Assembly: GCF_000025685.1 (NCBI RefSeq)
Contig: NC_013964.1
Span: 90,001-122,000, forward strand
Direction: 5' to 3'
DNA from: Haloferax volcanii DS2
GTDB lineage: Archaea; Halobacteriota; Halobacteria; Halobacteriales; Haloferacaceae
DNA length: 32,000 nt
Notes under the pieces: generated by a model
What the model was told of the DNA's origin: nothing
The model's input: only the letters and a program-made list of their open reading frames with translations
Databases searched by the model: none
In this document: positions 12,668 through 29,072 of the stretch, in pieces
Layout of the letters: each line of letters starts with the position of its first letter
How positions within the stretch are numbered: position 1 is the stretch's first letter
Program-made: the position numbers and the translations under genes

Positions 12668-12694
12668 CGTCTGGTTATAGGTGTTGGCACGGGG

Positions 12695-13717: not shown

Positions 13718-13719
13718 GG

Positions 13720-14724
13720 TTACTCCTCACCCACCGAGATGCGCGGGTCGATGAGCGTGTACGTGAGGTCGGCGATGAAGATGGCGGTCAGCGAAATCGC
13801 CGTGAACACGAGGAGCGTGCCCATCAACAGCGGGTAGTCTTGCGTCTTGACCGCCTCGAACATCAGGAGACCCATGCCCGGGTACGCGAAGACCTCCTCG
13901 ACGATGACGGCGCTGCTGAAGACGCCGGCGATGCCGATCATAAACTGCGTGTACATCGGGAGGATGGAGTTGTGCCCGAGGTACTGCGTGGCGATGCGGG
14001 TCTCGCGGAGCCCGCGAAGCTGCGCCACGCGGATGTAGTCCTCGCCGAGGACGCGAACCGCGTTCCCGCGCATGGCGAGCGCGCCGGAGGTCGCGAGCGC
14101 GCCCATCGAAATCGCCGGGAGCGCCGCGTGTTGCACGAGACTGAGCATGAACTCCGGATTGTACCCCGCGGCGATGCCCGAGCCGATTCGGCCGCCGGTC
14201 GGGAAGTAGTTGTTCTGGATGGCGAGGAAGTAGATGAGCACGACGCCGACGATGTAGTACGGAATCGAGTTGAGTCCGATGATGAGCGATGACACCGTGG
14301 AGTCGAACCGCGACTTCTCCCGGTAGGCCGTCATCACGCCGAGGAAGATGCTCAGCGAGTAGCCCAGCGCGAGCGCGTAGACGCTGATGAACATCGACCA
14401 CGGGATGCGCTGCATGATGAGCGTCGTGACCTCCTCGTTTTTGAAGAACGAGGTGCCGAGATCCTGCCGGAGAATCACGTCAGACGCGTAGTTGAAATAC
14501 TGTACGTGCATCGGCTGGTCCGGGTTCACGTTCGTGTAGAGCTGTATCATCCTGTTCAGTCGGTCGATATCGACGCTCCCGCCGCTCTGCGAGAGGATCA
14601 CGCTCCGCATCGCTTCCGTCGGGCCACCGGGCATGGCCTGGTACAGCAGAAACGAGACCGTCATCGTGACGAAAAACGTCAGTATCGCTTGCCCGAGACG
14701 CTTCAACAAATACTTTGGTGTCAT
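13720..14724 (-). CDS. ABC transporter permease, DppB/OppB type
   Basis: 334 aa. The N-terminus MTPKYLLKRLGQAILTFFVTMTVSFLLYQAMPGGP is typical of this type. Loop region GEDYIRVAQLRGLRETRIATQYLGHNSILP. Confidence 0.9.
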   Translation of the reverse strand: MTPKYLLKRLGQAILTFFVTMTVSFLLYQAMPGGPTEAMRSVILSQSGGSVDIDRLNRMIQLYTNVNPDQPMHVQYFNYASDVILRQDLGTSFFKNEEVTTLIMQRIPWSMFISVYALALGYSLSIFLGVMTAYREKSRFDSTVSSLIIGLNSIPYYIVGVVLIYFLAIQNNYFPTGGRIGSGIAAGYNPEFMLSLVQHAALPAISMGALATSGALAMRGNAVRVLGEDYIRVAQLRGLRETRIATQYLGHNSILPMYTQFMIGIAGVFSSAVIVEEVFAYPGMGLLMFEAVKTQDYPLLMGTLLVFTAISLTAIFIADLTYTLIDPRISVGEE

Positions 14725-14754
14725 TATTAATAGTTTGGCTTCTAGCGTGAGAGA

Positions 14755-14775
14755 GCTTAATTGTGGTGGTTAAGC
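14755..14775 (-). other. Intercistronic hairpin (GCTTAA-N9-TTAAGC) between SBP and permease genes
   Basis: 6-bp perfect arms at 14755-14760 and 14770-14775, in the 73-nt AT-rich gap after the SBP stop (14798). Confidence 0.3.
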
Positions 14776-14797
14776 CCGTCGAGGCTGCCGTCTCACC

Positions 14798-16654
14798 TCA
14801 CTGCGAGTTGGAGCTAATCCATCCGTTTTTGAAGGAGAACTCGCCCGGTCGGTTCGTGTTGAGTTCGTAGTCGTCGCCCGTCGGCATGGAGAAGTCCTGC
14901 GTGTCGCCCCAGTAGCCGGAGTCTTCCTCGACGAAGACGAAGTCGGGAAGCGCGTAGTTGAACCACTGGACGAGGTCGCGGGTCCGCTCTCTGACCTGCT
15001 CTGCGGACTCGGAGTTCGGCAGGTCGTTCATCAGCTGTGCGGGCTGAATCTCTTTGCCGCTGCCGGAGATTTCGGTCGCGCCGACCTCGCTCGGGATGGT
15101 CGTCGTAAAGGGCTTGCCCGTCGGGCCGGTCTCGTTCCCACTGGAGGGGTCACCGACCTCGATGCCGTAGAAGTTGTTCGAGAAGTACGCCGTCGGGTGC
15201 CACAGCGCCTTCGCGACGTGCCATATCCAGAAGATGTCCGCCTCGTACGTTTGGAGGCGCTGGTAGTAGTCGGTCGAGCTGACCGTGCTGATTTCGGTCT
15301 GGATGCCGAACGCGTTGAGGTGGTCGTTGAAGACCTTCGTCGCCTGCACCTGGGTGTTGTTGTTCTGCGTGAGGACGGTGAACGTGAAGGACTCGCCATC
15401 AGGGTCGACCCACGTCCCGTTCTCCTTGGTGTAGCCGGCGTCTTCGAGCAGCTGCGTCGCGGTTTCGAGATCCTTGCCGACCGGGTAGTCGATGAGCTGG
15501 TCGACGAAGTCCGAGCCGAGGTACTCCTCGTGAATCGTCGAGCGCAGCGCCGTCTGGTTCTCGGCGGGCGCGCCGACCGTTCCGGCCTGCCGCATCGCGG
15601 CGACCATCGACTCGAAGTCCACCGCGTTGACGATGGCGCGTCGGACGGGAAGCCTCGCGATGTGCTCGTTCTTGAAGTTGAACGTGAACTTCTGGGTGCG
15701 GAACCAGTTGAGCCGGTAGACGTTCTCGATGTTGTCCGGGTACCGGGACTGCTGGGACTCCGACATGAGTACGTCGGGGTTCATGTCGAGTTGGTCGTTC
15801 ACCGACAGCGACTCCACGTCGGAGGTCGTCTCGGGGATGATGCGGACGTTCGGGACGTCCGTCCGGCTCGCGTACGGGTGGTCTTCGAACTTCTCGAGGA
15901 CGGTCTCCGAGGAGTTGAAGCCGGTGACGCGGTACAGCGCGTTGCCGAGACCCTCGTCGATGAGCTGTTGGGTCGTGATGCTCATGTCGAGGAGGTCGCT
16001 CGTCACGCTCTCGCGCTCGCTCTCATTCGATGCCTCCTCGTAGCGGGTGAGGTATTCGCGGTAAATCGACCGCGGGGTGTTGACGAACGTCTCGGCGACG
16101 TTCGCCTTCATCAGGTTGGGCGAGACGGCCGTCTTGAACGTCCGCTCGATGGTGTAGTCGTCGACCAGCGTGTTGCTCTCGATGGGTGACTGCTCGGGCG
16201 ATTGCAGGCGGTCGATTTCGAGACCGATGTAGTAGTCTTCGGCCGTCAGGTCGTCGCCGTTCCACCACTTGAACCCCTCGGGGAACGTCAGCGTGAGCGT
16301 CCGCCCGTCGACGGTCATGTCTTCGAGCAGGTCGGGTCGGACCGTCCCGTCGGCGTAGCCGCGCGCGACTTCCTCGAACAGTTGGTCCTGCAGGGTGTGC
16401 GCGTAGTTGCCGAGGCTGTACCGGTTGAACTGCACGTCCGTCGCGGGTCGGCCCGCGGGGTAATCGAGGGTGTCGTCGGCGATGCTCGCGCCGCCCTCGG
16501 TGGTCGTGCCGCCGTCCGTGCCGTCCCCGGTACTGCCGTCTTCGGTCGTCTGCCCGGAACTATCGAAGCAGCCGGCCAGTCCAGCCGTGCCAGCCACCGC
16601 CCCGTACTTGATAAGGTCTCGTCTACTCCAGTTGGTTGAACGCTTTCCAGCCAT
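14798..16654 (-). CDS. ABC transporter substrate-binding lipoprotein, SBP family 5 (Dpp/Opp type), Tat-exported
   Basis: 618 aa with SRRDLIK twin-arginine motif, lipobox LAGC and a Thr/Gly/Asp/Ser linker. First gene of a five-gene SBP-permease-permease-ATPase-ATPase operon (16654 -> 10521). Confidence 0.9.
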   Translation of the reverse strand: MAGKRSTNWSRRDLIKYGAVAGTAGLAGCFDSSGQTTEDGSTGDGTDGGTTTEGGASIADDTLDYPAGRPATDVQFNRYSLGNYAHTLQDQLFEEVARGYADGTVRPDLLEDMTVDGRTLTLTFPEGFKWWNGDDLTAEDYYIGLEIDRLQSPEQSPIESNTLVDDYTIERTFKTAVSPNLMKANVAETFVNTPRSIYREYLTRYEEASNESERESVTSDLLDMSITTQQLIDEGLGNALYRVTGFNSSETVLEKFEDHPYASRTDVPNVRIIPETTSDVESLSVNDQLDMNPDVLMSESQQSRYPDNIENVYRLNWFRTQKFTFNFKNEHIARLPVRRAIVNAVDFESMVAAMRQAGTVGAPAENQTALRSTIHEEYLGSDFVDQLIDYPVGKDLETATQLLEDAGYTKENGTWVDPDGESFTFTVLTQNNNTQVQATKVFNDHLNAFGIQTEISTVSSTDYYQRLQTYEADIFWIWHVAKALWHPTAYFSNNFYGIEVGDPSSGNETGPTGKPFTTTIPSEVGATEISGSGKEIQPAQLMNDLPNSESAEQVRERTRDLVQWFNYALPDFVFVEEDSGYWGDTQDFSMPTGDDYELNTNRPGEFSFKNGWISSNSQ

Positions 16655-17566: not shown

Positions 17567-17597
17567 GCGTCGTCGCGGCGGACTGAGCCGACTCTCG

Positions 17598-17603
17598 TTT
17601 TTT
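17598..17603 (+). terminator. Oligo-T (T6) tract after the usp gene
   Basis: ctcgttttttctg lies 32 nt downstream of stop 17566, in the gap between convergent genes. Confidence 0.35.
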
Positions 17604-17647
17604 CTGCCCCCGCGACCGCGTAGCCGTCTGTACTCAGTCGTTCGAGA

Positions 17648-18487
17648 CTACTCCGGCGGGCTGTCCCACTCCTCGCCGTCGTCCTGCGGGTGGTAGCCGA
17701 TCTGCGAGCGGGCGTGTTCGAGGTCGTACCACCGGCGCTGGTTGTCGCTCACGCCGCTGAAGATACCGAATTCGACGTTGTCGTCTTGCAGACAGCAGTC
17801 GATTTCGTGGGCGAAGTCGCGGCGGGACTGCCACATCGACTTCATGCGCCCGACGGTTTCCTCGTACTCGGCGCTCCCGCGTTCGAACTCGCCGTTCTCG
17901 ACGGCGGCCTCGGCGTCGCCGTAGGGGTGGTCGTACTCCGGCATCCGGACGCTGCACACCCGGAGGGCGTAGAACTGCTTGGGGTATTCGTAGTTCTCGA
18001 CGTAGTACCGACCCATGTCCTCGCCGTACGCCTTCGACGCGCCGTAAAACGAGTCGGGGCGGACGGGGTCCTCGTGGCCGATGACGAGTCCGTGACCCGG
18101 CTCATATATCTCGGGGGAGAACTCGTCCTCGTAGCCGCCCATGACGTGATTGGTCGAGAGGAAGACGAACGACTCGATTTCGTTCTCGCGGGCGACTTCG
18201 AGCGCGTTGTACATCCCGATGATGTTGGGCTCGAAGATGTCCTCCCACGTCCCGTCGGTGTAGGGGTACGCCGCCATGTGGACCATCGCGTCCTGCCCCG
18301 CCGCGGCGCCGTCGAGCGCGTCGTAGTCGGACACGTCGCCGACGACGGTGTCGTAGCCACCGTAGGGGTGGTCGTCGGGACGGTCGGAGCGGTTGAAGTA
18401 CGTGAAGTCGTAGGCGTCGTCGTCGTGCAGGTGGTCTATGACTGCGGTGCCGCACCGGCCATAGACGCCGGTCATCAAGACGTCCAT
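17648..18487 (-). CDS. NAD-dependent epimerase/dehydratase-fold SDR, uronate dehydrogenase (Udh)-like
   Basis: 279 aa with GxxGxxG (TGVYGRCGT) and YxxxK (YGASK). Blocks NIIGMYNALEVAR, LSTNHVMGGY, PVRPDSFYGASKAYGE, MWQSRRDFAHEI and SDNQRRWYDLEHARSQIGYHPQDD parallel, from memory, Agrobacterium Udh (NIIGLYNLYEAAR, SSNHTIGYY, PDGLYGVSKCFGE, TWFSHDDF, WWDNSHLGFLGWKPKDN). The fold call is firm; the substrate call is moderate. Confidence 0.8.
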   Translation of the reverse strand: MDVLMTGVYGRCGTAVIDHLHDDDAYDFTYFNRSDRPDDHPYGGYDTVVGDVSDYDALDGAAAGQDAMVHMAAYPYTDGTWEDIFEPNIIGMYNALEVARENEIESFVFLSTNHVMGGYEDEFSPEIYEPGHGLVIGHEDPVRPDSFYGASKAYGEDMGRYYVENYEYPKQFYALRVCSVRMPEYDHPYGDAEAAVENGEFERGSAEYEETVGRMKSMWQSRRDFAHEIDCCLQDDNVEFGIFSGVSDNQRRWYDLEHARSQIGYHPQDDGEEWDSPPE

Positions 18488-18510
18488 ACGAATCCACTCT
18501 GACCAAATCG

Positions 18511-18518
18511 TAATAAAT
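18511..18518 (-). promoter_or_regulatory. TATA-like box of the Udh-like gene
   Basis: The minus strand reads ATTTATTA, centred about 27 nt upstream of ATG 18487. Confidence 0.35.
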
Positions 18519-18662
18519 TGATGGGTGACCGTGACGTCCGACTTCGCTTCGGGTATCGCTTCGGCCCGCCCGTTCGGGTCACGAAGCCTGAATGCCGCGC
18601 ACCAGATGGACGACTCGCGGGCCCTCTCGCGCGTGAACGCCGGGTTCAGGCGTTGACGATGG

Positions 18663-18670
18663 GTTTATCA
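18663..18670 (+). promoter_or_regulatory. TATA-like box of the KdgD-like gene
   Basis: GTTTATCA is centred about 28 nt upstream of ATG 18695. It is immediately preceded by the inverted repeat AACGCC-N7-GGCGTT (18636-18654). Confidence 0.35.
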
Positions 18671-18694
18671 CGGTTGACTCAGATTGACTGTACC

Positions 18695-19633
18695 ATGCCA
18701 CTCGCAGACGACCGTGTACGCAGTCGTCTCCGTGGCGTCGCCGTCGGCTTGCTCACGCCGTTCGACGACGACCTGGAGATTCAACACGACAAACTCGAAG
18801 CGAACGCGAAGTCGCTTTCCGGCGACGGTATCTCGTCGTTCCTCGCGGCCGCGAACATCAGCGAATACCACTCCCTGTCCCAACAGGAGCGCGTCGACGT
18901 GACGGAGACGGCGGTCGACGCGCTCCCCGACAGCGCCTGCGTCCTCGCCGGCGTCGGCGGGTCGACGAAGGCCGCGACGGACCTGATGGAAGCCTACGAC
19001 CGCGTCGGCGTGGACGCCATGATGGTCATGCCGCCGGACCACACCTACGTCCACGAGCGGGGACTCATCCGCTACTACGAGAAACTCGACGCCGCGACCG
19101 ACACGCCGCTCGTTCCCTACGTCCGCGGCTTCGACCCCTCGGTCTCCTTCCTCCGCGACCTCTCGCGCATCGAGGGCGTCGTCGGCGTCAAGTACGCCAT
19201 CGAGGACCCGGTCAAACTCGGTTCCGCCGTCGCCGTCGCGGACGACGACGTGGTCTGGGTGGACGGCCTCGCGGAACCCTACGCCGTCTCGTTTTGGAAC
19301 GAGGGCATCGAGGGGTTCTCGGCGGGCGTCAGCAATTTCCGCCCGGAAATCGGCCTCGCGCTGTTCGAGGCGCTCACCGAGGAGAACTGGGAACGCGCCC
19401 GCGAGATTCGCGACCTGACGCTCCCGTTCCAAGCTCTCCGCGGCGAGACGGGAACCGACAACGACCTTCCCGGCGCGATAAGCGTCCCGATAGTGAAGAA
19501 GGGCCTCGAACTGGCCGGCCTGCACGGCGGGGAAGTCCGCGAGCCGATTCGGTCGCTGTCGGCCGACGACGAGCGCCGCGCCGAGGAACTGTACGAGGAA
19601 CTCGACGACGGCATCGCCCGCGTCATCGACTGA
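18695..19633 (+). CDS. Dihydrodipicolinate synthase/N-acetylneuraminate lyase family protein, 5-dehydro-4-deoxyglucarate dehydratase (KdgD)-like
   Basis: ORF 18518..19633 trimmed to MPLADDRVRSRLRGVAVGLLTPFDDD (the family-typical N-terminal strand). Also has SEYHSLSQQER, VGVDAMMVMPP, and VVGVKYAIED as the candidate Schiff-base Lys. The start is supported by TATA spacing. Confidence 0.85.
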   Translation: MPLADDRVRSRLRGVAVGLLTPFDDDLEIQHDKLEANAKSLSGDGISSFLAAANISEYHSLSQQERVDVTETAVDALPDSACVLAGVGGSTKAATDLMEAYDRVGVDAMMVMPPDHTYVHERGLIRYYEKLDAATDTPLVPYVRGFDPSVSFLRDLSRIEGVVGVKYAIEDPVKLGSAVAVADDDVVWVDGLAEPYAVSFWNEGIEGFSAGVSNFRPEIGLALFEALTEENWERAREIRDLTLPFQALRGETGTDNDLPGAISVPIVKKGLELAGLHGGEVREPIRSLSADDERRAEELYEELDDGIARVID

Positions 19634-19752
19634 CTCACCGACATCGACCCGAGCGCGCACCGACGACTCCGACCGCACCGATATCGACTGACCACGCTCA
19701 CCGCACCTGCCTGACGCTACCCGGCGACAGCCGTCGGAAGCACCCTACCCCA

Positions 19753-19757
19753 TTTTT
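19753..19757 (+). terminator. Oligo-T (T5) tract downstream of the KdgD-like gene
   Basis: cccatttttcgcc lies about 120 nt after stop 19633. Confidence 0.25.
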
Positions 19758-19929
19758 CGCCGTCTCGACGTTCCCTCGCTCCCTGTTGAGCCGTTTTCAC
19801 GTCTCACCGGCCCGCTCGTCTCCCACCGGACTCCCGGCCCGCACTAATCATAACACACCTTCAGCTCCGGCAGTTGAGCGGCCACATTCCTAGACTGACC
19901 GCATGAGGGCAGCGTCATACTCCATCTTG

Positions 19930-19944
19930 TTCGCCGGTGGGGAA
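19930..19944. promoter_or_regulatory. Imperfect dyad TTCGC-CGGTG-GGGAA (copy 1 of a 15-nt direct repeat)
   Basis: ttcgccggtggggaa matches ttccccggtggcgaa (19995-20009) at 13/15 positions, 65 bp apart. Both fit TTCCC-N5-GGGAA with one arm mismatch. Confidence 0.3.
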
Positions 19945-19994
19945 CGAACATCAGGCGAATCGTGCCCAATTATTCACTCTGGATGGGATTTGCG

Positions 19995-20009
19995 TTCCCC
20001 GGTGGCGAA
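19995..20009. promoter_or_regulatory. Imperfect dyad TTCCC-CGGTG-GCGAA (copy 2)
   Basis: See 19930-19944. The CCGGTGGC core also occurs at 28994-29001, upstream of the CUT1 SBP gene. A related CGGTGGCG occurs at 24824-24831, in the iclR/GH105 spacer. Confidence 0.3.
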
Positions 20010-20148
20010 TATTCGGATTTAGGCCTCTCTGTGGGCTCTGGATTGGGTTTAGGGGGGTTGGCGTTTTGGTCGGCTGTGCGTCACTCACGACGAACGCGCG
20101 AATTCGACGCGATATTCGCCCATATATTACAAGCATATGACTGTAATT

Positions 20149-20164
20149 TTCCCGCCTCGGGAAC
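20149..20164. promoter_or_regulatory. Dyad TTCCC-GCCTC-GGGAA(C), near-identical to the iclR-promoter dyad
   Basis: ttcccgcctcgggaac matches ttcccgcctggggaac (24738-24753) at 15/16 positions. Both follow a T-rich/TATA-like stretch (gtaatttt and tatatatttg). It lies about 120 nt upstream of the SGNH esterase start. Confidence 0.4.
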
Positions 20165-20276
20165 CGATGATGCCACTTCGGCGTCTGTCTCCGTCCAGCA
20201 CCGGCGCGCCCGTCGTCGCGCGTCGGTCGCCGGAGGTAGGGATAAGTAGGTGTGGCGTGTGCGTGACTCACACGGT

Positions 20277-21311
20277 ATGCAGCACGACGATATCCAGCAC
20301 GACGACGTTCAGTTCCACAACGTCAGGGCGCTCCAGCGGGTCAGACCGCACGAGGGACTTCGACTGCTCCGCGTTCCGGAGGCCGTCAGGAGCGGCCTGA
20401 ACACCGGCGCGCAGACGCGGATGTCTCACCCGGCGGGAACCGAGATTCGACTCGTCCCCGATGAGACGGTTCGAATCACGCTCTCCTCCGAGGAGCGAGA
20501 CAGCCTCGTTCGACCGTTCTGGGGAGACTTTCAGGCGACGGGCGAGGAGTTCACGCTCGGGCCGGAGCCGAAGACGGTCGAACTGTCTCCCCCGGAGTCG
20601 CTGTCCGACCTCGACCCGGCGGCGACCGGCGAGATGCGTTACGCGCCCGAGGTGTGCCGACTCGTCTTCCCCGGCGACCACCGCGGCGGCCACATCTACT
20701 ACCACGGCGTCGAGGGCGCGCGGCGGCCGCCGACCGCCGACGAGGTTCCGAGCCTCCGATACCTCGCGTACGGCACGTCGATTACCGAGGGCGAGGACCC
20801 GTCGGCGGAGATGCTCACGTACGTTAACCAGACGGCCCGGAGACTCGGTGCGGACCCGATAAATCTCGGCTCCTGCGGGACAGCCTACTGCGACCCCGCG
20901 ATGGCCGAGCACATCGCCGCCCGCGACGACTGGGACGTGGCGACGCTCTCGCTGTCGGTGAACATGGTCGGCCGATTCTCGCCCGACGAGTTCCGCGAGC
21001 GCGCCGCGGACATGGTCGAAACCGTCGCCGCGGCGAACCCGACCAAACCCGTCGCCTGCATCACGCTGTTCCCGCACGTGCGCGAGTACAAGCGCGACCA
21101 CGAGGAAGCGACGCTCTCCGAGACGTTCCGCCAGCACCTTCGTGACGTGGTTGACGAGTGCGGCTACGACAACGTCCACCTCGTGGAGGGCCCCGACCTC
21201 CTGCCGACCGCCAGCGGGATGACGACCGACCTCGTCCATCCCGGCGACGACGCGATGGTTCGCATCGGTGAGCGCCTCGCGCGCGAGCTCGAATCTCTCA
21301 TGGACGATTGA
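20277..21311 (+). CDS. SGNH/GDSL-family hydrolase (putative carbohydrate esterase) with N-terminal beta-sandwich-type domain
   Basis: ORF 20250..21311; start taken at ATG 20277. Block I YGTSITEG (Ser nucleophile) and block V DLVHPGD (DxxH). The roughly 160-aa N-terminal extra domain resembles that of esterases with accessory domains. No signal peptide. GGATAAGTA lies at 20240-20248, about 33 nt upstream. Confidence 0.85.
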   Translation: MQHDDIQHDDVQFHNVRALQRVRPHEGLRLLRVPEAVRSGLNTGAQTRMSHPAGTEIRLVPDETVRITLSSEERDSLVRPFWGDFQATGEEFTLGPEPKTVELSPPESLSDLDPAATGEMRYAPEVCRLVFPGDHRGGHIYYHGVEGARRPPTADEVPSLRYLAYGTSITEGEDPSAEMLTYVNQTARRLGADPINLGSCGTAYCDPAMAEHIAARDDWDVATLSLSVNMVGRFSPDEFRERAADMVETVAAANPTKPVACITLFPHVREYKRDHEEATLSETFRQHLRDVVDECGYDNVHLVEGPDLLPTASGMTTDLVHPGDDAMVRIGERLARELESLMDD

Positions 21312-21409
21312 CCGGGATATGCGCGACTCAGACGCTCTCGTAGTCGAATTTTCCGAACGAAATCTCCGCGAGCGTAACACCGAAGCACCCCCCTGTTCGA
21401 TGGACGTGT

Positions 21410-22318
21410 ATGACCGTCGCCGCAAATCTGGGCTACATGCTCGGGGTGCTCTGCCTCGGGGCGCTAGCGAAGCGTCTCGGCCTCCTCGACAGCGGCCGCC
21501 GCGACAAACTCACGTTCTTCGCGTTCGCCTTCGCGCTCCCCGCGCTCGTGTTCACCTCGACGTACGACCAGCCGATTCGCGAAGTTATCGAGCCGACGCT
21601 CGTGTTGGGCTTTTGGCTCGTCCTCTTTACGATGCTCGCCGTCGGCTGGGTCGTCCACCGGCGGGTGTCGCCCGACTCGGTTCGCAGTGTCGCCATCGTC
21701 CAGTCGTACTACTCGAACCTCGGCTTCCTCGGGCTCCCGCTCGTCGATTCGACGTTCGGTTCGCTGGCGTCTGCGAAGGCGGCCGTCATTCTCGGCATCG
21801 GCGCGCTCACCCACGTCCCGCTCACTATCACGGTCCTCGTGCTCGTCAACGGCGCTGACGTGTCGTTCAAAGAGGAGTTCATCGGCGTGCTCAAGACGCC
21901 GGTCATTCCGGCGCTCGTGTTGGGGCTCGCCTTCTCCGGGCTCGGCCTCGGCGTCCCCGGTGTCCTTCTGACGGGGCTCGACGCGCTCTCCTCGCTCGCG
22001 CTCCCCGTGGCGCTGCTCTCCATCGGCGCGTCGCTCACGATTTCCACCGAGTCGTTCGACTTTCGCACCGTCGGGGCCGTCGTCGGCAGCAAAGTCGTCC
22101 TGATGCCGCTTCTCGCCTTCGCCGTCTTCTCGACGTTCGCGTCGAGTTGGTCGACGGTCCAAGCCGGCGTGACGATGCTCGCGACGCCGACCGCCGTCTC
22201 GTCGTTCATCTACGCGAACGAACTCGGCGGCGACGCCGACCTCGCGTCGATGAACGTGTTCGCGACCACCGCCGTCTCGGTCGCCACCCTGTTCGTCGTC
22301 CTCCAGTTCCTCCTTTGA
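21410..22318 (+). CDS. AEC (auxin efflux carrier) family membrane transporter
   Basis: 302 aa with about 10 hydrophobic spans and two-lobed architecture. Sequence character is that of the Mem_trans/AEC family (LGLLDSGRRDKLTFFAFAFALPALVF ... LPVALLSIGASL). Confidence 0.88.
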   Translation: MTVAANLGYMLGVLCLGALAKRLGLLDSGRRDKLTFFAFAFALPALVFTSTYDQPIREVIEPTLVLGFWLVLFTMLAVGWVVHRRVSPDSVRSVAIVQSYYSNLGFLGLPLVDSTFGSLASAKAAVILGIGALTHVPLTITVLVLVNGADVSFKEEFIGVLKTPVIPALVLGLAFSGLGLGVPGVLLTGLDALSSLALPVALLSIGASLTISTESFDFRTVGAVVGSKVVLMPLLAFAVFSTFASSWSTVQAGVTMLATPTAVSSFIYANELGGDADLASMNVFATTAVSVATLFVVLQFLL

Positions 22319-22458
22319 GGCGGCGGCGGCTCGTCGATACCAGTCCGAACCTCGCGAATTCGCTTCGCTCACACCTTGCGACGGCCACGAGCGCGCGGCG
22401 GCCATCCGCGCTCGCCATGAGAAGCTTACTTGGTGATGGGTGTGCATGGCTAGGTCGA

Positions 22459-23910
22459 ATGTCGAGAACCTACGGTAACTTCATCGACGGCGAATGGACA
22501 GATTCCCAGTCGGGAGAGACGTTCGAAGTGACGAACCCCGCGGCGGCCGGCGAAGTCGTCAGCGTCCCCCCGGCGTCCTCCGAAGCGGACGTCGAGGCGG
22601 CGCTCGACGCGGCCGTCGCCGCGCAGGACGAGTGGGCGTCGACGCCCGGTCCGTCCCGTGGCGCGGTGCTCCGCGAGGCCGGCAACAACCTCGAAGCCCG
22701 GAAGGAGGAGGCGACCGAAGTGCTCGTCCGCGAGGAGGGCAAGACGCGCTCCGAGGCGGGCGGCGAAGTACAGCGCGCCATCGACATCTTCCACTACTAC
22801 GGCGCGAAGGCGCGGGACTTCGGCGGCACCGTCAAGTCTGCGAGCGCCCCCGGCAAGGACCTCTACACGAAGCACGAACCCCTCGGCACGGTCGCGCTCA
22901 TCACGCCGTGGAACTACCCCATCGCCATCCCGGTCTGGAAGCTCGCCCCGGCGCTCGCGGCCGGTAACACCGCGGTCCTCAAGCCGGCGTCCGAAGCGCC
23001 GGGCGTCGTCTCCATCGTCCTCGAATGTCTCGACGATGCGGGACTCCCGGCCGGCGTGGCGAACACCATCACCGGCTCCGGGAGCGAGGTCGGCGGCCCG
23101 CTCATCGAGAGCGAGCGCATCGACGGCGTCTCCTTTACCGGCAGCACCGCCGTGGGGACGATGGTCGCCGAGACGGCCGCGGTCGACCTCAAGCGCGTCC
23201 AGTGTGAGATGGGCGGCAAGAACCCGACCGTCGTGATGCCCAGCGCGGACATCGAGGCGGCCGCCGAGACCGTCGGCGTCGGCGCGTTCGGCACGACCGG
23301 CCAGTCGTGTACGGCCACCTCGCGCGCCATCGTCCACGAGGACGTGTACGACGAGTTCGTCGCGGCCGTCTCCGACTACGCCGAGTCGCTCGTCGTCGGC
23401 GACGGACTCGACGACCCCGACATGGGCCCGCACGTCTCCGAGAACGAACTGTCCTCGACGCTCGAATACATCGACATCGGCTCCTCGGAGGGCGCGACGC
23501 TCGAAGCCGGTGGCAGCCGACTCTCCGGCGACGACTACGACGACGGCTACTTCGTCGAGCCGACCGTGTTCTCCGGCGTCGAAAACGACGCTCGTATCGC
23601 TCAAGAGGAGATTTTCGGTCCCGTCCTCGCGGTCGTCAAGACCGACTCCTTCGAGGACGCGCTCGACCTCGCCAACGACGTTGACTACGGGCTGTCGGCC
23701 AGCATCGTCACGCAGGACCTCAGCGAGGGCAAGCGCTTCGTCAACGAGGTCGAAGCGGGCGTCGCGAAAATCAACGAGAAGACGACCGGTCTCGAACTCC
23801 ACGTCCCCTTCGGCGGCTACAAGGACTCGTCCACTAACACGTACCGCGAGCAGGGCGACGCCGGCCTCGACTTCTTCTCGTCGGTGAAGACCATCTACGA
23901 GAACTACTGA
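22459..23910 (+). CDS. NAD(P)-dependent aldehyde dehydrogenase, 2-oxoglutarate (alpha-ketoglutarate) semialdehyde dehydrogenase-like
   Basis: ORF 22147..23910 trimmed to MSRTYGNFIDGEWTDS (canonical ALDH N-terminus). The upstream 104 codons are Arg-rich and overlap the AEC gene. Catalytic contexts are EMGGKNP (Glu) and GQSCTATSR (Cys), with cofactor site FTGSTAVG. Confidence 0.9.
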   Translation: MSRTYGNFIDGEWTDSQSGETFEVTNPAAAGEVVSVPPASSEADVEAALDAAVAAQDEWASTPGPSRGAVLREAGNNLEARKEEATEVLVREEGKTRSEAGGEVQRAIDIFHYYGAKARDFGGTVKSASAPGKDLYTKHEPLGTVALITPWNYPIAIPVWKLAPALAAGNTAVLKPASEAPGVVSIVLECLDDAGLPAGVANTITGSGSEVGGPLIESERIDGVSFTGSTAVGTMVAETAAVDLKRVQCEMGGKNPTVVMPSADIEAAAETVGVGAFGTTGQSCTATSRAIVHEDVYDEFVAAVSDYAESLVVGDGLDDPDMGPHVSENELSSTLEYIDIGSSEGATLEAGGSRLSGDDYDDGYFVEPTVFSGVENDARIAQEEIFGPVLAVVKTDSFEDALDLANDVDYGLSASIVTQDLSEGKRFVNEVEAGVAKINEKTTGLELHVPFGGYKDSSTNTYREQGDAGLDFFSSVKTIYENY

Positions 23911-23929: not shown

Positions 23930-24703
23930 TCAGGAGAACTTCGTGTTCAGTTCGATGACGTTCGCCGCGCTTCGGACGTAGTCCGCGAGTTCGCCGTGCA
24001 GGCGGTCCTCGGTGAACCGGCTCGACGGGCCGGTGATGCTAATCGCGCCGAGGATTGTCTCGTCGTTCTTGACCGGCGCAGAGACGCAGCGCAGACCGTT
24101 GATGTTCTCCTCGTCGTCGATGCCGTACCCTTGCTCGCGGATGGTTTCGAGCTCCTCGAACAGCTCCTCCGGACTGGTGATGGTGTTCGCCGTCTTGGGC
24201 TCGTACTCCATCGCGGCCGCGATTTCCTCGATGCGCTCGGGCGGCAGGTACGCCAGAATCGTCTTGCCCAGCGACGTGGAGTACATCGGCTGTTGGGTCC
24301 CCACCCGCGACAGCGTCTCGACGGCGTGTTCCCCCTGCGCCTTGTGGAGGTACGAGACCTTTCCGTACTCCTCGACGCCGAACTGGACGATTTCGCCCGT
24401 CTCCTCGGCCAGCGAGTCGACCTCTTTTTGAACGATGTCGAAGTTGCCTATCTGGTCGCGGACGTGCGAAGCCACGTCGAGAAACCGCAGGCCCAGCCGG
24501 TAGCCGTCGCCCTCTCGGACGATGACGCGCCGCTCTTCGAGCGTTCGGAGGTGGCTGTGGACCGTGCTCTTCGAGTGGCCGAGCTCGTCGGCAATTCGCG
24601 TCACGCCGATGCCCGCCTCCTCCTGGAGGTGGTCGATGATATTGAACGCTATCTGGACCGAGCGGATTGTTCGGCCGGGGCGTTTGTTCGGTGGGGAGCT
24701 CAT
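23930..24703 (-). CDS. IclR-family transcriptional regulator
   Basis: ORF 23930..24952 trimmed to MSSPPNKRPGRTIRSVQIAFNIIDHL. It has a winged-HTH (GVTRIADELGHSKSTVHSHLRTLEERRVIV) plus an IclR effector domain (MYSTSLGKTILAY, NGLRCVSAPV, GAISITGP). TATA spacing supports the start at 24703. Confidence 0.92.
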   Translation of the reverse strand: MSSPPNKRPGRTIRSVQIAFNIIDHLQEEAGIGVTRIADELGHSKSTVHSHLRTLEERRVIVREGDGYRLGLRFLDVASHVRDQIGNFDIVQKEVDSLAEETGEIVQFGVEEYGKVSYLHKAQGEHAVETLSRVGTQQPMYSTSLGKTILAYLPPERIEEIAAAMEYEPKTANTITSPEELFEELETIREQGYGIDDEENINGLRCVSAPVKNDETILGAISITGPSSRFTEDRLHGELADYVRSAANVIELNTKFS

Positions 24704-24736: not shown

Positions 24737-24737
24737 G

Positions 24738-24753
24738 TTCCCGCCTGGGGAAC
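24738..24753. promoter_or_regulatory. Dyad TTCCC-GCCTG-GGGAA(C); extended form GTTCCC-N5-GGGAAC; candidate IclR operator
   Basis: Perfect 6-bp arms at 24737-24742 and 24748-24753. It abuts the upstream side of the iclR TATA box (-34 to -50 from the iclR start). A 15/16 match lies at 20149-20164. Confidence 0.4.
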
Positions 24754-24890: not shown

Positions 24891-25958
24891 ATGCCAGCAG
24901 ACGAGCTTACACCAGTCCAGCGCGCCGCGTCGTATCTCCGGTCGTTGGACATCGACGGTCAATCGTGGATTACCGGCGTCGCCATCAACGGCCTGCTCGC
25001 CGAGGGCGGAGACGAGTCGGTCGAGCGCGCGAAGCACTTCGTCGACACCGCGGTGGCGACCCAGAACGACGCCGGGCAGTTGAGCTACGGCCCGAGCTAC
25101 CCAATTGAGGTTTTCAGCCACGGCCGCGAGTACGAGGCGAGCTGGGAGCTGACCGTCAAGAAGTGCATGAACACGAACAACAGCACCGCCATCGGTCACA
25201 GCGTCCTCGACTTCTACGACCGCACGGGCGAGGACCGCTACCTCGACGCGGCCGAACGCGCCTACGAATCGCTTCTCTCCTTCGAGCGGACCGAAGACGG
25301 CGGCATCCCTCACCACGACCCCGAACTCGCGGGCATCAAGTCGCTGTGGATCGACTCCGTCTACATGATGTGCCCGTTCCTCGCGCGCTACGGCGCGGCC
25401 GCGGGCGACGCCGACGCCTTCGACGAGGCGGTCGAGCAGATTCTGATTCACGCCGCGCACCTCCGCGACGGCCACACGGGGCTGTTCCGCCACATCTGGG
25501 TCGAACAGCCGAACCACTACCCGCAGGGCGCGTTCTGGGCGCGCGGCAACGGGTGGGCCGCCGCCGCCTCGGCGGACGTGCTCGAACGGCTCCCCGAGGA
25601 CCACCCGAAGCGCGACGACCTCCTCGACCTGTTCCGGTCGCACTGCGAGGCGCTCCTTCCGCTCCAAGACGGTAGCGGTTTCTGGCACAACCTCGTCGAC
25701 GACCCGCACACGCCGCTCGAATCGTCGGGGACGCTCATGTTCGCCTACGCGTTCGCCCGCGGCATCGACCTCGGCATCCTCGATGCGGAGACCTACCGCC
25801 GACCCGCCGAAGACGGGCTCGCAGCCGTCTCTCGCGTCGTCGGCGAGGAGGGCGCGGTCAACCGCGTCGCCGGCCCGCCGGGCGGCCCCGAGGCTCCGCT
25901 GACGGACACGCCTTACGGACAGGGCTGGTTCCTGATGGCCGCGGCCGCGCTCGACTGA
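24891..25958 (+). CDS. Glycoside hydrolase family 88/105 protein (unsaturated glucuronyl/rhamnogalacturonyl hydrolase), cytoplasmic
   Basis: ORF 24735..25958 trimmed to MPADELTPVQRAASYL. Family blocks of the (alpha/alpha)6 barrel: LWIDSVYMMCPFLARYG, FWARGNGWAAA, GFWHNLVDD, ESSGTLMFAYAF. No signal peptide. Confidence 0.88.
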   Translation: MPADELTPVQRAASYLRSLDIDGQSWITGVAINGLLAEGGDESVERAKHFVDTAVATQNDAGQLSYGPSYPIEVFSHGREYEASWELTVKKCMNTNNSTAIGHSVLDFYDRTGEDRYLDAAERAYESLLSFERTEDGGIPHHDPELAGIKSLWIDSVYMMCPFLARYGAAAGDADAFDEAVEQILIHAAHLRDGHTGLFRHIWVEQPNHYPQGAFWARGNGWAAAASADVLERLPEDHPKRDDLLDLFRSHCEALLPLQDGSGFWHNLVDDPHTPLESSGTLMFAYAFARGIDLGILDAETYRRPAEDGLAAVSRVVGEEGAVNRVAGPPGGPEAPLTDTPYGQGWFLMAAAALD

Positions 25959-26058: not shown

Positions 26059-27156
26059 ATGACTTACCACGCAGGCATCATCGGCACGGGCGGCATCGCA
26101 GGGATGGGCATCCTCGGCATGCACGACGAGGAGGCCATCGGCAGAGAGAAAATCGACGCGAGCCACGCGGGCGGGTACGCCGCGACCGACGACATCGAAC
26201 TCGTCGCCGTCGCAGACGTGGACGAGTCGAAACTGGACACCTTCGGGGAGGCGTGGGACATCCCCGCCGACCGCCGGTACGTCGGCCACGAGGCGATGCT
26301 CGAAGCTGAGGACCTCGACGCGGTGTCGGTCTGCACGCCGTCGTTCCTCCACCGCGACCACGTCGTCTACGCCGCGCGCTCCGCGGCCGACCCCTCGGTC
26401 GTCTGGTGCGAGAAACCCATCGCGTCGGCCGTCAGCGACGCCGAGGAAATGGTCGCCGTCTGCGACGACACCGACACGGAACTCGTCGTCAACCACTCGT
26501 TCCGGTTCACGGACAAGCTCCGTCGGCTCCGCGACCTCGTCCGCGATGAGGGTATCCTCGGCGACGTGAAGTCCGTGAGCGCGCAGTACCGCATGGAACT
26601 CATGCGGAACTCCACGCACGTCCTCGACACCCTCGTCTACCTCCTCGACGCGCGGGCCTCGCGGGTGAGCGGCCACATCACCGGCGAGAACGAGGCGCTC
26701 GACGCGCTGGACGCCACGGAGTCGGTCGTCGACGCCGGCGGCGGCGGGCACGTCGTCATGGACGACGGCACGTTCGTCACCGTGGACTGCACGATTCCGC
26801 GCGACGTCTCCTCGATGACGCTGAGTTTCATCGGCACCGAGGGCAAACTCTACATGAACAACGACGACGGCGAGTGGCGCTACTGGTCGCTCGAAGACGG
26901 CGAACACGTCGAGCGGTCGCTCCCCGGCATCGAGGGCGCGTGGACGTGGGAATCGGACTACAAGGGGTCGTTCGCCAACGCGGCGGCCCACGTACAGGAA
27001 CTCCTCGGCGGCGACGCCGAAAACTACTCGCCCGGCGTCGCGGCGACCCGCTCGCTCGAAATCATCGTCGGGTTCTACCTCTCGCACTACACCGATTCGA
27101 CGGTCGATATCCCGCTTCCGGGGCCGCTCCGGGAGGTCCCTATCACGTCGTGGTGA
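26059..27156 (+). CDS. Gfo/Idh/MocA-family NAD(P)-dependent oxidoreductase (putative sugar dehydrogenase)
   Basis: 365 aa with N-terminal Rossmann GIIGTGGIAGMG and the family EKP motif (VWCEKPIA). The C-terminal alpha/beta domain is present. Confidence 0.9.
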   Translation: MTYHAGIIGTGGIAGMGILGMHDEEAIGREKIDASHAGGYAATDDIELVAVADVDESKLDTFGEAWDIPADRRYVGHEAMLEAEDLDAVSVCTPSFLHRDHVVYAARSAADPSVVWCEKPIASAVSDAEEMVAVCDDTDTELVVNHSFRFTDKLRRLRDLVRDEGILGDVKSVSAQYRMELMRNSTHVLDTLVYLLDARASRVSGHITGENEALDALDATESVVDAGGGGHVVMDDGTFVTVDCTIPRDVSSMTLSFIGTEGKLYMNNDDGEWRYWSLEDGEHVERSLPGIEGAWTWESDYKGSFANAAAHVQELLGGDAENYSPGVAATRSLEIIVGFYLSHYTDSTVDIPLPGPLREVPITSW

Positions 27157-27696
27157 GCCGCAGTCGGTCGGTCAGTCGCTCACGCCGGACAATCATCCGG
27201 CATGGCCGGAAGAGCTTCTGGCGCCGGGGATCGAGCTGAATCGGACGTATATCGAGGATAGAGGCCCAAATAGTGCAGTATCGGGTTTTCTATTGCTCTC
27301 TCCCGCAGTGGTCTTCTCGTCTGGCCGGTCGAATCTGTGCTCCAGGATATATCCGTGACACTCCGCATAGAAATAATTCCAAATTACAATTCTATGGTAG
27401 TAATGGTTAGGGCGTGCAACCCGTTTGGACGGCAATCGCGTACATCGAGCCGTCGTACCACTCGGTTAGCGGGTGACGCTCCACGGTCGATTCGAGCCTC
27501 ACCGGGTTTCCGCCAGTGGCGGATAAGTATCCGGAAGGACCGGAGCGAACGGTTATTCCGGAAGACGGCCATTTGTGCGCCGCTACTCCGGGGTAAATTC
27601 GATTTTGGGGTAATTCGTCCAGTACTATTCTCGGTGAGAAATTCGTTGCGGATGGCGGGCGCTCCGCCATGGCCGGACAACTGTCTCCTTCGAGCG

Positions 27697-27999: not shown

Positions 28000-28054
28000 A
28001 CGGCCTCCGATTCGGCGGCCCCCGTCTTAGCTTTTCGGCGGGTAAGATTTAGTA

Positions 28055-28066
28055 CGGGAACGCCCG
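28055..28066. promoter_or_regulatory. GC-rich dyad CGGG-AACG-CCCG between the AT-rich box and the amidohydrolase start
   Basis: Lies at -24 to -13 from ATG 28079, directly after the AT-rich taagatttagta (28043-28054). This is the same architecture as 4068-4079 in front of the other lactonase-type gene. Confidence 0.3.
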
Positions 28067-28078
28067 TCGTCGATTGTA

Positions 28079-29044: not shown

Positions 29045-29072
29045 GAACTATAGTGGTTTGTAATAGCACATC

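Follow-up and report, generated by a model that had tools for sequence, protein, structure and literature searches.

A candidate oxidative uronate branch leading to 2-oxoglutarate, beside pectin-type glycosidases on plasmid pHV3 of Haloferax volcanii

We note that a 32,000-nt stretch of Haloferax volcanii DS2 DNA (contig NC_013964.1, plasmid pHV3; hereafter the window, with positions counted from its first nucleotide) carries, beside pectin-type glycosidase genes, candidates for an oxidative branch that would convert uronate to 2-oxoglutarate. The window is about 65% G+C and holds 26 genes with acidic products after filtering on G+C at the third codon position, a combination of acidic products and high third-position G+C that is typical of haloarchaeal coding. 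A preliminary description of this DNA had named six genes in connection with such a branch; all are genuine open reading frames with acidic products and a third-position G+C of 0.79-0.93, and the open reading frame check together with Pfam and NCBIfam confirmed each location and superfamily. Database entries identical to seven of the window proteins exist (ADE01446.1, ADE01532.1, ADE01296.1, ADE01287.1, ADE01631.1, ADE01587.1 and ADE01424.1), and the nearest other copies of the island, 98% identical, lie on megaplasmids of H. alexandrinus and H. lucentense.

The two genes on which the proposal turns are divergently transcribed, as had been described, across a 207-bp spacer (18488-18694) that presumably serves as the promoter region of both. 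To the left, on the minus strand, lies the gene of a 279-amino-acid short-chain dehydrogenase/reductase (SDR; 17648-18487; Pfam Epimerase), a member of the family that unites uronate dehydrogenase (Udh) with Azf, the haloarchaeal SDR-type glucose-6-phosphate dehydrogenase, and within it of a long-loop clade. To the right, on the plus strand, a gene at 18695-19633 encodes a 312-amino-acid enzyme of the dihydrodipicolinate synthase (DHDPS)/N-acetylneuraminate lyase (NAL) family (Pfam DHDPS, 113.9 bits), belonging to a haloarchaeal subfamily that we call "ANISE" after a motif discussed below. Three further plus-strand genes would complete the branch: an SMP-30/gluconolactonase-family beta-propeller lactonase (4093-4962), an acid-sugar dehydratase of the enolase superfamily, mandelate racemase subgroup and Atu3453 type (8848-9978), and a 483-amino-acid aldehyde dehydrogenase of the 2,5-dioxovalerate type (22459-23910).

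The aldehyde dehydrogenase scores 815.1 bits on NF052305 (DioxValDhHalo; equivalog cut-off 750), with residues 1-483 aligned to profile positions 1-483, and this pass bears out the earlier assignment to the 2-oxoglutarate-semialdehyde type. On the bacterial GucD model it reaches 550 bits, under the cut-off, and an identical protein is named 2,5-dioxovalerate dehydrogenase by NCBI. Profile evidence therefore strongly supports a 2,5-dioxovalerate (alpha-ketoglutarate semialdehyde) dehydrogenase that forms 2-oxoglutarate. A second copy of this gene is found elsewhere on related Haloferax plasmids.

The enolase-superfamily gene was likewise confirmed and its product is a close homologue of 4HCH-type proteins. 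A phmmer search matched it to the Agrobacterium Atu3453 structures 4MMW, 4HCD and 1RVK (E 6e-110), and its AlphaFold model (predicted local distance difference test score, pLDDT, 91.6) has as top Foldseek match 4HCH (template modelling score, TM, 0.96; 48% identity; E 1.7e-50), an entry of the Atu3453-type set (1RVK, 4HCD, 4HCH, 4HCL and 4MMW) titled "D-glucarate dehydratase from Agrobacterium tumefaciens". The metal-ligand and base residues K164, D199, E225, E251 and H302 are invariant in 42 homologues. Identity to the galactarolactone cycloisomerase Gci (4HPN) is only 26%; on the TalrD/GalrD model the protein scores 123 bits against a cut-off of 500, the GudD model gives no match, and no canonical GudD/GarD model was matched in NCBIfam. 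There is good reason, from sequence and predicted fold, to regard the enzyme as a candidate aldarate (glucarate/galactarate) dehydratase rather than as an orthologue of Gci or of a canonical aldarate dehydratase. Since the window contains no Gci orthologue, the cycloisomerase option offered in the preliminary description falls away here, and only a lactonase plus dehydratase route is available. For the lactonase step the SMP-30 gene, also confirmed, is the candidate: its product matches Pfam SGL at 139.7 bits (cut-off 26.3), has sugar lactonases as best solved relatives (3DR2, 7PLB and 3E5Z), and may open aldaro-1,5-lactone to aldarate. On an Agrobacterium plasmid an SMP-30 gene is paired directly with a homologue of the DHDPS-like gene.

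For the SDR, a sequence search of the PDB gave the uronate dehydrogenases 3RFT, 3RFV, 6MFH and 3AY3 as best solved relatives (E 4e-19 to 6e-17), with dTDP-glucose dehydratase next at 3e-8, and its 279 residues are close to the length of Udh (267-275), while the sugar-nucleotide enzymes among the PDB and Foldseek matches have 304-363. The predicted structure is of modest quality (pLDDT 70.8), and Foldseek places UDP-galactose epimerases on a par with Udh (E about 1e-11, TM 0.55-0.59), unlike the sequence search, which separates Udh (4e-19) from other families (3e-8 or weaker). The glycine-rich TGxxGxxG and Tyr-x3-Lys motifs are present, with G7, G10, G13, Y148 and K152 invariant in 36 SDR orthologues and the latter motif aligned to "YGVSK" of Udh; "STNH" (N113 and H114 invariant) and R214 align with Udh "SSNH" and with Arg174 of A. 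tumefaciens Udh. In Udh, the Asn of the S-N-H motif stabilises the C6 carboxylate of the substrate (residue roles in PMC4476818). Azf keeps the same substrate and catalytic residues, so these motifs do not separate uronate from sugar-phosphate specificity.

Azf itself was considered and ruled out as the identity of the SDR. Its model, NF041293, is the top NCBIfam match, yet the score is 167.6 bits against a cut-off of 400, whereas a true Azf representative reaches 439; in the same range as the SDR, at 150 bits, is P0264, a protein grouped with A. tumefaciens Udh in a neighbour-joining (distance) tree of 104 family members drawn from a search of 1.8 billion cluster representatives. The Azf score of the SDR reflects family membership only. 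Our assignment stays at the family level: Udh/Azf family, candidate NAD(P)+-dependent uronate 1-dehydrogenase.

The DHDPS-like protein is likewise assigned at the level of the family, as a candidate 5-keto-4-deoxy-aldarate dehydratase/decarboxylase that would yield alpha-ketoglutarate semialdehyde. Its two best NCBIfam matches are models of KdgD, the bacterial enzyme for that reaction, ahead of DapA (79.7 bits) and of a weak match to an archaeal aldolase model for 2-keto-3-deoxygluconate (KDG; 40 bits). Relative to A. tumefaciens KdgD (4UR7 sequence), Lys166, Tyr140 and Ser211 are retained, in "VGVKYA", "VPYVRG" and "GFSAG", and are conserved in haloarchaeal orthologues. In KdgD the Lys forms the Schiff base, the Gly-Thr of the beta2 motif GGTGE coordinates the substrate carboxylate, and the Ser is proposed to protonate the leaving hydroxyl (PMC5114784). 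The best solved relatives, 3D0C and 3E96, are uncharacterised structural-genomics proteins; the automatic UniRef name of the H. massiliensis orthologue is "putative 5-dehydro-4-deoxyglucarate dehydratase". For the formation of alpha-ketoglutarate semialdehyde by this enzyme the only support is indirect, namely its co-location with the aldehyde dehydrogenase, which occurs in 21 of 39 loci.

These 39 haloarchaeal loci around SDR orthologues come from Haloferacaceae, Halobacteriaceae, Haloarculaceae and Natrialbaceae, and genes were counted within 10 kb of the SDR. A DHDPS-like gene is present in 34 of them, about 27 being of the ANISE type (at least 60% identical), followed by an IclR regulator (25 loci), a second, Gci-like enolase-superfamily gene (24), the aldehyde dehydrogenase (21), a 6-phosphogluconolactonase-type lactonase (11), glycoside hydrolase family 105 (GH105; 10), pectate lyase (9) and GH28 (7). 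The counts for SMP-30 and for the window-type enolase are underestimates, as in Haloferax both are at the very edge of the 10-kb flanks or outside them. The second enolase-superfamily gene matches Agrobacterium Gci (4GGB/4HPN) over its full length at 7e-71, just behind 3,6-anhydrogalactonate cycloisomerase; NCBIfam gave generic matches only for these genes and for the lactonases of other genera. In Halarchaeum sp. CBA1220 and Halomontanus rarus, for instance, the annotated neighbourhoods bring together, side by side, genes for pectate lyase, GH28, GDSL esterase, the SDR, the DHDPS-like enzyme, two enolase-superfamily enzymes, a lactonase, an aldehyde dehydrogenase, a Gfo oxidoreductase, an IclR regulator and an Opp-type transporter. 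It is mainly because this association recurs, mirroring the Agrobacterium set of Udh, Gci, KdgD and dehydrogenase (PMC6353982), that we favour uronate as the substrate, and this comparative evidence, from neighbourhoods conserved across three haloarchaeal families, is the best support for it.

Some features of the island's distribution may be mentioned alongside. Most of its copies are on megaplasmids. The Halorubrum lipolyticum copy (L007) is 94% identical in the SDR, 93% in the enolase-type enzyme, 94% in an HbpS-like protein and 83% in the DHDPS-like protein, far above the expectation between Haloferax and Halorubrum, which suggests recent lateral transfer of parts of the island. A second type of locus (L024, L033 and L018) combines a more distant SDR (60-73% identical) with an orthologue of the Gfo/Idh/MocA oxidoreductase and, in most cases, with a DHDPS paralogue bearing GNTGE and a fumarylacetoacetate-hydrolase-family or cupin gene; it may represent a related pathway for a different sugar acid.

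The remaining genes of the window, placed in order with the help of Pfam, NCBIfam and RefSeq's annotation of the H. alexandrinus copy, extend the preliminary description by GH105/GH88, SGNH/GDSL esterase, sulfatase, Gfo/Idh/MocA, IclR and AEC transporter genes, two Opp/Dpp-type ATP-binding cassette (ABC) systems and the start of a rhamnose (rhc) cluster. The first ABC system lies 5' of the SMP-30 gene. Following the latter is the gene of an HbpS/GlcG-like protein (5047-5499, minus strand; PF03928; annotated "heme-binding protein"), orthologues of which (68-94% identity) are found again close to the SDR in Halorubrum, Halocatena, Natronorubrum and Natrinema loci. The GH28 gene already reported is confirmed at 5639-7255 (minus strand; Pfam Glyco_hydro_28, 63 bits); polygalacturonase PglB (226 bits, cut-off 600) and then a rhamnogalacturonidase are its best NCBIfam matches, and its product appears to be of the polygalacturonase/rhamnogalacturonidase type, without an obvious signal peptide. 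A sulfatase-family hydrolase (7312-8739, plus strand; Pfam Sulfatase, 152 bits; start as annotated by RefSeq in the H. alexandrinus orthologue) hints at a sulfated natural polymer. Beyond the enolase-type gene, the second ABC system (10521-16654, minus strand) comprises two ATPases, two permeases and a family-5 binding protein (Pfam ABC_tran with oligo_HPY, BPD_transp_1 and SBP_bac_5), is kept beside the SDR in many haloarchaea and likely serves oligosaccharide uptake.

A universal stress protein (Usp) gene separates this system from the SDR. In relatives, the place of the Usp-SDR gap (17567-17647) is occupied by the gene of a 552-amino-acid right-handed beta-helix protein (for instance L038:18690-20348) with a twin-arginine signal peptide (SRRTALALLGG...), which may be a secreted depolymerase. 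It is carried by H. alexandrinus, H. lucentense, H. gibbonsii, H. marisrubri, H. massiliensis, H. prahovense and Halorubrum lipolyticum, and is absent from the window and from H. denitrificans, H. chudinovii and H. namakaokahaiae. As the gene is missing from the window, H. volcanii may be without an extracellular enzyme that attacks the polymer.

Downstream of the DHDPS-like gene, a plus-strand row consists of an SGNH/GDSL esterase (20277-21311; Pfam Lipase_GDSL_2/3), possibly a deacetylase of acetylated uronic-acid polymers, an AEC-family membrane transporter (21410-22318; Pfam Mem_trans, 85.6 bits) and the aldehyde dehydrogenase; orthologues of the esterase adjoin pectate lyase in Halarchaeum. 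An IclR-family regulator (23930-24703, minus strand; Pfam IclR_C and HTH_IclR) is followed by a GH105/GH88 unsaturated uronyl hydrolase (24891-25958, plus strand; Pfam Glyco_hydro_88, 208 bits), which would release a 4,5-unsaturated uronate that rearranges to 5-keto-4-deoxyuronate; its best solved relatives are YteR, 3K11, 3QWT and the ulvan-type 3S-rhamnoglycuronyl hydrolase 4CE7. The adjacent Gfo/Idh/MocA oxidoreductase (26059-27156, plus strand; Pfam GFO_IDH_MocA) received no specific NCBIfam assignment; its orthologues occur in 12 of the 39 SDR loci and adjoin the aldehyde dehydrogenase in Halarchaeum, and the enzyme may oxidise or reduce the GH105 product. Scanning the 26 window genes against Pfam revealed none of the isomerase routes (UxaC/UxaB/UxaA, KduI/KduD or KdgK/KdgA types), in agreement with the absence noted before. 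Two unusually long intergenic stretches with A+T-rich segments, 3371-4092 (722 bp) and 27157-27696 (540 bp), show neither an open reading frame with a coding signature nor a Pfam match, and might be remnants, small RNAs or promoter regions.

The island IclR regulator, whose 257-amino-acid form matches database entries, is distinct from a second IclR gene inside the rhc cluster (presumably RhcR) and likely regulates the island. Its probable operator, judging from position and recurrence, is the palindrome GTTCSC-N5-GSGAAC, which with at most one mismatch was observed four times against about 0.5 expected per window, always between genes: at 19929-19945 (no mismatch), 19994-20010 (one), 20148-20164 (one) and 24737-24753 (perfect; GTTCCCGCCTGGGGAAC). 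The first three (19929-20164) lie upstream of the GDSL-AEC-aldehyde dehydrogenase row, in a triple arrangement found also in other Haloferax species, and the fourth lies in the divergent IclR/GH105 promoter region. As both carry the palindrome, the row and the GH105 gene would belong to one putative regulon. Many genera have the palindrome again, both 5' of the orthologous IclR gene and in front of cluster genes. A weaker copy with two mismatches (4067-4083) is seen 10 bp before the SMP-30 start. The SDR/DHDPS-like spacer contains two TATA-like elements, "CGTAATAAAT" adjoining the first codon region of the SDR and "GGGTTTATCA" some 25 bp ahead of the start of the DHDPS-like gene, both conserved in Haloferax, Halorubrum, Halocatena and Halopelagius.

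The right end of the window (27697-32000) is the start of the rhc cluster, a characterised system for L-rhamnose breakdown, with a rhamnose mutarotase (27697-27999, minus strand; Pfam rhaM), an amidohydrolase-2 gene (28079-28948, plus strand; Pfam Amidohydro_2) and, as the last genes, a rhamnose ABC transporter. The amidohydrolase-2 gene had been listed among the uronate-branch candidates. In the 98%-identical H. alexandrinus plasmid, however, RefSeq annotates it as rhcC, L-rhamnono-1,4-lactonase, with rhcE, rhcD, the IclR gene, rhcF and rhcB downstream, just past the window end (L044); a PDB search with the protein gave spurious repeat-protein matches only. That it might be a Gli-like lactone isomerase is ruled out by this annotation at the head of a complete rhamnose cluster, and it is withdrawn here from the uronate branch. 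The same cluster disposes of the idea that the uronate candidates are themselves a rhamnose pathway of the aldolase type, in which the SDR would oxidise rhamnose, the enolase-type enzyme dehydrate rhamnonate, the DHDPS-like protein cleave keto-deoxy-rhamnonate as an aldolase and the aldehyde dehydrogenase oxidise lactaldehyde: this was dropped because the adjacent rhc genes already include rhcB, rhcC, rhcD, rhcE and rhcF with their own IclR regulator. On the rhamnonate dehydratase model the enolase-type enzyme scores 59 bits only. By gene content the rhc cluster is part of the same island but outside the uronate branch, and the contiguity of the two is what a polymer containing both rhamnose and uronic acid would lead one to expect.

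We regard an oxidative branch from uronate to 2-oxoglutarate, set beside pectin-type glycosidases, as the most likely function of these genes, and one that we hold to be probable though by no means assured. The genes, their families, the pass of the aldehyde dehydrogenase model, the homology of the enolase-type enzyme, the neighbourhoods and the clustering of the palindrome are observations, from which we infer every substrate and reaction of the following scheme. The island would serve polysaccharide utilisation on pHV3, the target being a rhamnogalacturonan- or ulvan-type polymer that combines rhamnose with uronic acid; to judge from the sulfatase and from the ulvan-type relative of GH105, a sulfated rhamnose/uronic-acid polymer, rather than plant pectin, may be the natural substrate. 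Oligosaccharides imported via the ABC systems would be trimmed inside the cell by GH28, GH105, GDSL esterase and sulfatase, and the rhamnose would enter the adjacent rhc pathway named in the RefSeq annotation. The SDR would oxidise the pyranose C1 of galacturonate or glucuronate to the aldaro-1,5-lactone, which the SMP-30 lactonase would open; the Atu3453-type enzyme would dehydrate the aldarate to 5-keto-4-deoxy-aldarate; the ANISE-type enzyme, through a Schiff base on its conserved lysine, would dehydrate and decarboxylate this to alpha-ketoglutarate semialdehyde; and the aldehyde dehydrogenase would deliver 2-oxoglutarate. The island IclR protein would control at least the GH105 gene and the GDSL-AEC-aldehyde dehydrogenase row via GTTCSC-N5-GSGAAC. 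Also counted in favour of the uronate branch are the rhamnose pathway being complete without these genes, the window being free of isomerase-route genes and the operator-like palindrome that ties the GH105 gene and the row with the aldehyde dehydrogenase to a single regulator.

Several findings weigh against it, and the main doubts that they raise are that both key enzymes are divergent, that the carboxylate-binding motif of KdgD is missing and that the SDR clade is functionally mixed. The DHDPS-like protein is below both KdgD cut-offs (128.1 bits against 373.95 and 149.4 against 278, for the models TIGR03249 and PRK03620), is no closer by BLAST to named KdgD proteins (24-26% identity) than to DapA (27%), and has ANISE in place of the KdgD motif GGTGE, as does every haloarchaeal orthologue examined (64-100% identity), whereas GNTGE is found in paralogues, 3D0C and most bacterial relatives, and GNTSE in 3E96. 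On account of the cut-offs, the low identity and the replaced motif the protein is not a member of the KdgD family; it belongs to a distinct conserved "ANISE" subfamily, whose nearest bacterial relatives are uncharacterised or adjoin arabinonate dehydratase. The epithet "KdgD-like" in the preliminary description accordingly holds for the superfamily, the ranking of models and the retained Lys, Tyr and Ser, but not beyond.

Much the same applies to the SDR, described as Udh-like: Udh proteins are its best solved relatives and the Udh residues are kept, but phylogenetic placement, as had been proposed, put it in a clade apart from all characterised Udh (in the tree mentioned above, which has long terminal branches and is without support values). 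Its beta6-alpha10 loop, which shapes the substrate pocket, has 39 residues, against 13 in Udh and 16 in the Azf representative P0191. A published Azf phylogeny contains an uncharacterised haloarchaeal group ("group 2") bearing such a loop insertion (PMC8506132), to which the SDR probably corresponds. Outside the halophiles, members of the long-loop clade belong to clusters for glycan biosynthesis rather than to catabolic ones; on metagenome contigs (L045, L047, L048 and L049) the SDR is accompanied by genes for a CMP-sugar synthetase (CTP_transf_3), Ldh_2, a cyclase, NeuB, a methyltransferase and a glycosyltransferase. This context suggests a role in acidic-sugar biosynthesis and gives no support for catabolic Udh activity, and the transfer of function from these relatives was dropped; the long-loop clade is functionally mixed. 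Two relatives from halophiles lay on contigs whose short length made them uninformative. Less directly, the SMP-30 and enolase genes lie 8-13 kb from the SDR, and outside Haloferax mostly other types of lactonase and enolase-superfamily enzyme occur; the label "D-glucarate dehydratase" of 4HCH is that of its depositors, with no supporting publication found in the literature searched; and the palindrome is absent, at up to two mismatches, from the SDR/DHDPS-like promoter region, where sister species have a weak related element, GTTCA-N7-TGAAC. Finally, and as the chief caution, strains AArc-m2/3/4 and HArc-gm2, which carry orthologues of cluster genes, reportedly failed to grow on pectin, on polygalacturonate and on rhamnogalacturonan (PMC9726719), and A-rgal3, which carries a DHDPS-like orthologue, grew only marginally or not at all on galacturonate (PMC12343721). 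Of the complete pathway first proposed, plausible candidates for every step and their conserved neighbourhoods stand, qualified by the divergence of the SDR and DHDPS-like enzymes and by the loss of the misassigned amidohydrolase-2.

Alternatively, instead of free galacturonate or glucuronate the main substrate might be 5-keto-4-deoxyuronate, formed from the GH105 product after lyase action, with the SDR or the Gfo protein oxidising its aldehyde to 5-keto-4-deoxy-aldarate and the DHDPS-like enzyme and aldehyde dehydrogenase finishing to 2-oxoglutarate, in which case the lactonase and the enolase-type enzyme would be accessory. We consider this route, which could coexist with oxidation of saturated uronates, unlikely. 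It gains from the adjacency of the GH105 and Gfo genes, from the IclR palindrome upstream of GH105, from the pectate lyases that accompany the SDR and DHDPS-like gene in 9 of the 39 loci, from the Gfo orthologues that adjoin the aldehyde dehydrogenase in Halarchaeum, and from the lack in the window of KduI/KduD for the GH105 product. There is also a bacterial precedent, in which an alginate-derived analogue reaches 2-oxoglutarate via 2-keto-3-deoxy-glucarate, albeit by unrelated enzymes, namely a reductase of the classical SDR type and a dehydratase of the RraA family (PMC8563752). The window strain, though, has no lyase gene and lacks the secreted beta-helix protein of its relatives, and the conserved Gci-like and glucarate-dehydratase-like enzymes would be superfluous. 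Moreover, the known Udh enzymes attack saturated uronates, at the anomeric carbon of the pyranose. It is the DHDPS-like protein that invites another departure from the scheme, for the DHDPS/NAL superfamily consists mostly of aldolases or synthases. As a class I aldolase it might cleave a 2-keto-3-deoxy sugar acid (a keto-deoxy-aldarate, KDG or its galactonate counterpart KDGal, or keto-deoxy-rhamnonate) to pyruvate and an aldehyde, and the aldehyde dehydrogenase would then oxidise tartronate semialdehyde, glyceraldehyde or lactaldehyde instead of alpha-ketoglutarate semialdehyde. The failed KdgD cut-offs, the missing GGTGE, an identity to DapA that equals that to named KdgD and the weak KDG aldolase match all point in this direction. 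Against that, the DapA profile yields only about half the score of the KdgD profiles (80 against 149 and 128 bits), the Ser proposed in KdgD to protonate the leaving hydroxyl is conserved, and the co-localised aldehyde dehydrogenase passes the 2,5-dioxovalerate dehydrogenase model; the rhamnose pathway already has its own keto-deoxy-rhamnonate dehydrogenase and hydrolase, and the Pfam-scanned window genes include no tartronate-semialdehyde reductase or glycerate kinase. An aldolase thus appears quite improbable to us.

The identity of the sugar itself may also be questioned. The SDR could act on some other sugar that is anionic at C6 or modified, for instance a phosphorylated one, like the substrate of its paralogue Azf, a sulfated one or a derivative of an aldonic acid; the polymer would then differ (a sulfated exopolysaccharide of haloarchaea or algae, or glycoprotein glycans), and 2-oxoglutarate would be reached via another keto-deoxy acid. 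The separate and mixed long-loop clade, the sulfatase of the island, the pentonate genes associated with the nearest bacterial relatives of the DHDPS-like protein and the failure of strains with orthologous clusters on pectin-type polymers (PMC9726719, PMC12343721) would all be accommodated by such a substrate. What makes it very unlikely in our view is the recurrence of the SDR beside pectate lyase, GH28, GH105 and Gci-like or glucarate-dehydratase-like genes, together with the conserved equivalent of Udh Arg174 and the S/T-N-H motif (PMC4476818) and the distance between 167.6 bits and the Azf cut-off of 400.

Returning to uronate as the substrate, a bolder reading joins several of these elements, and we offer it as a speculation that is, taken whole, more doubtful than not. 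Haloarchaea including H. volcanii would run a wholly non-phosphorylative uronate catabolism from uncharacterised enzyme lineages, with two entries converging on 5-keto-4-deoxy-aldarate: saturated uronates would enter via the long-loop Udh/Azf-family dehydrogenase, followed by lactonase and dehydratase or by the Gci-like cycloisomerase, and unsaturated uronates derived from lyase and GH105 would enter by direct oxidation through Gfo or the SDR. The common intermediate would be processed by a new, ANISE-type dehydratase/decarboxylase. In nature the island would be directed not at plant pectin but at a sulfated polymer of rhamnose and uronic acid, derived from algae or other halophiles, which would explain the negative pectin growth tests, and Azf would have evolved from the uronate-type dehydrogenase.

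Uronic acids are major components of pectin, of algal polysaccharides and of haloarchaeal glycans. The statement in the preliminary description that uronate catabolism has not been experimentally defined in Archaea still holds, as no archaeal uronate pathway was found in the literature searched: a 2019 review of hexuronate catabolism makes no mention of Archaea (PMC6353982), a 2023 paper states that the oxidative glucuronate pathway had yet to be described for haloarchaea (PMC10443357), and a review of H. volcanii lists no uronate pathway. The chemistry is known from bacteria, and it is the archaeal setting and the two divergent enzyme subfamilies that are undescribed in that literature. Enrichments for pectin-degrading haloarchaea have failed though genomes encode pectin-type enzymes (PMC9726719), a puzzle that a uronate branch may resolve. 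If the branch is real, the central metabolism of Archaea would gain a sugar-acid pathway, two large unannotated subfamilies now labelled "epimerase/dehydratase family" and "dihydrodipicolinate synthase family" would gain functions, and an origin would be suggested for the Azf glucose-6-phosphate dehydrogenase. Gene deletion and halophilic protein expression are routine in H. volcanii, and the location of the genes on pHV3 of this tractable archaeal genetic model makes the uronate hypothesis directly testable.

Among known systems, the bacterial oxidative galacturonate/glucuronate pathway is the closest in proposed chemistry and end product; A. tumefaciens employs Udh, Gli, Gci, KdgD and alpha-ketoglutarate semialdehyde dehydrogenase, and in the Pseudomonas variant the lactonases UxuL/UxuF act with an aldarate dehydratase (PMC6353982). 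As there, steps 1, 3 and 4 would draw on a Udh-family SDR, the enolase superfamily and the DHDPS/NAL family, and the last on an aldehyde dehydrogenase. Other haloarchaea resemble Agrobacterium in placing a Gci-like cycloisomerase beside the SDR, while the H. volcanii version, with SMP-30 and an Atu3453-type enzyme but without a Gci-like gene, is more like the lactonase and dehydratase variant of Pseudomonas. It differs from the bacterial pathway in the separate long-loop clade of its SDR, in an ANISE-type protein that is not a KdgD orthologue, in the Atu3453 type of its dehydratase, in its archaeal host and in genes spread over about 20 kb among glycosidases and transporters.

Within H. volcanii, the oxidative pentose pathway XacA-F ends with an alpha-ketoglutarate semialdehyde dehydrogenase, XacF, and its keto-deoxy acid dehydratase is of the fumarylacetoacetate hydrolase family, not DHDPS; the xac genes, too, are on pHV3, with xacF next to xacD. 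The branch proposed here would likewise be a non-phosphorylative oxidative route to 2-oxoglutarate, with a final enzyme of the same family, whose model the window aldehyde dehydrogenase passes, and with IclR-type regulation (PMC11519228); it would differ in substrate, and in the window the aldehyde dehydrogenase gene follows an AEC transporter gene. The unsaturated-uronate route considered above would share its chemistry, from keto-deoxy-uronate through keto-deoxy-glucarate and alpha-ketoglutarate semialdehyde to 2-oxoglutarate, with the Flavobacterium pathway for the alginate-derived unsaturated 4-deoxy-L-erythro-5-hexoseulose uronate (DEHU; PMC8563752), which uses the unrelated enzymes named above, the reductase working there in the reverse direction, on a substrate of different stereochemistry. 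Azf (NF041293; PMC8506132), for its part, is set apart from the window SDR by its model cut-off, by a loop of 16 rather than 39 residues and by the catabolic polysaccharide context of the latter. Both are nevertheless haloarchaeal members of the SDR family that share the Rossmann fold and the catalytic and Arg residues, and, like Azf, the window SDR would oxidise C1 of a pyranose with an anionic group at C6.

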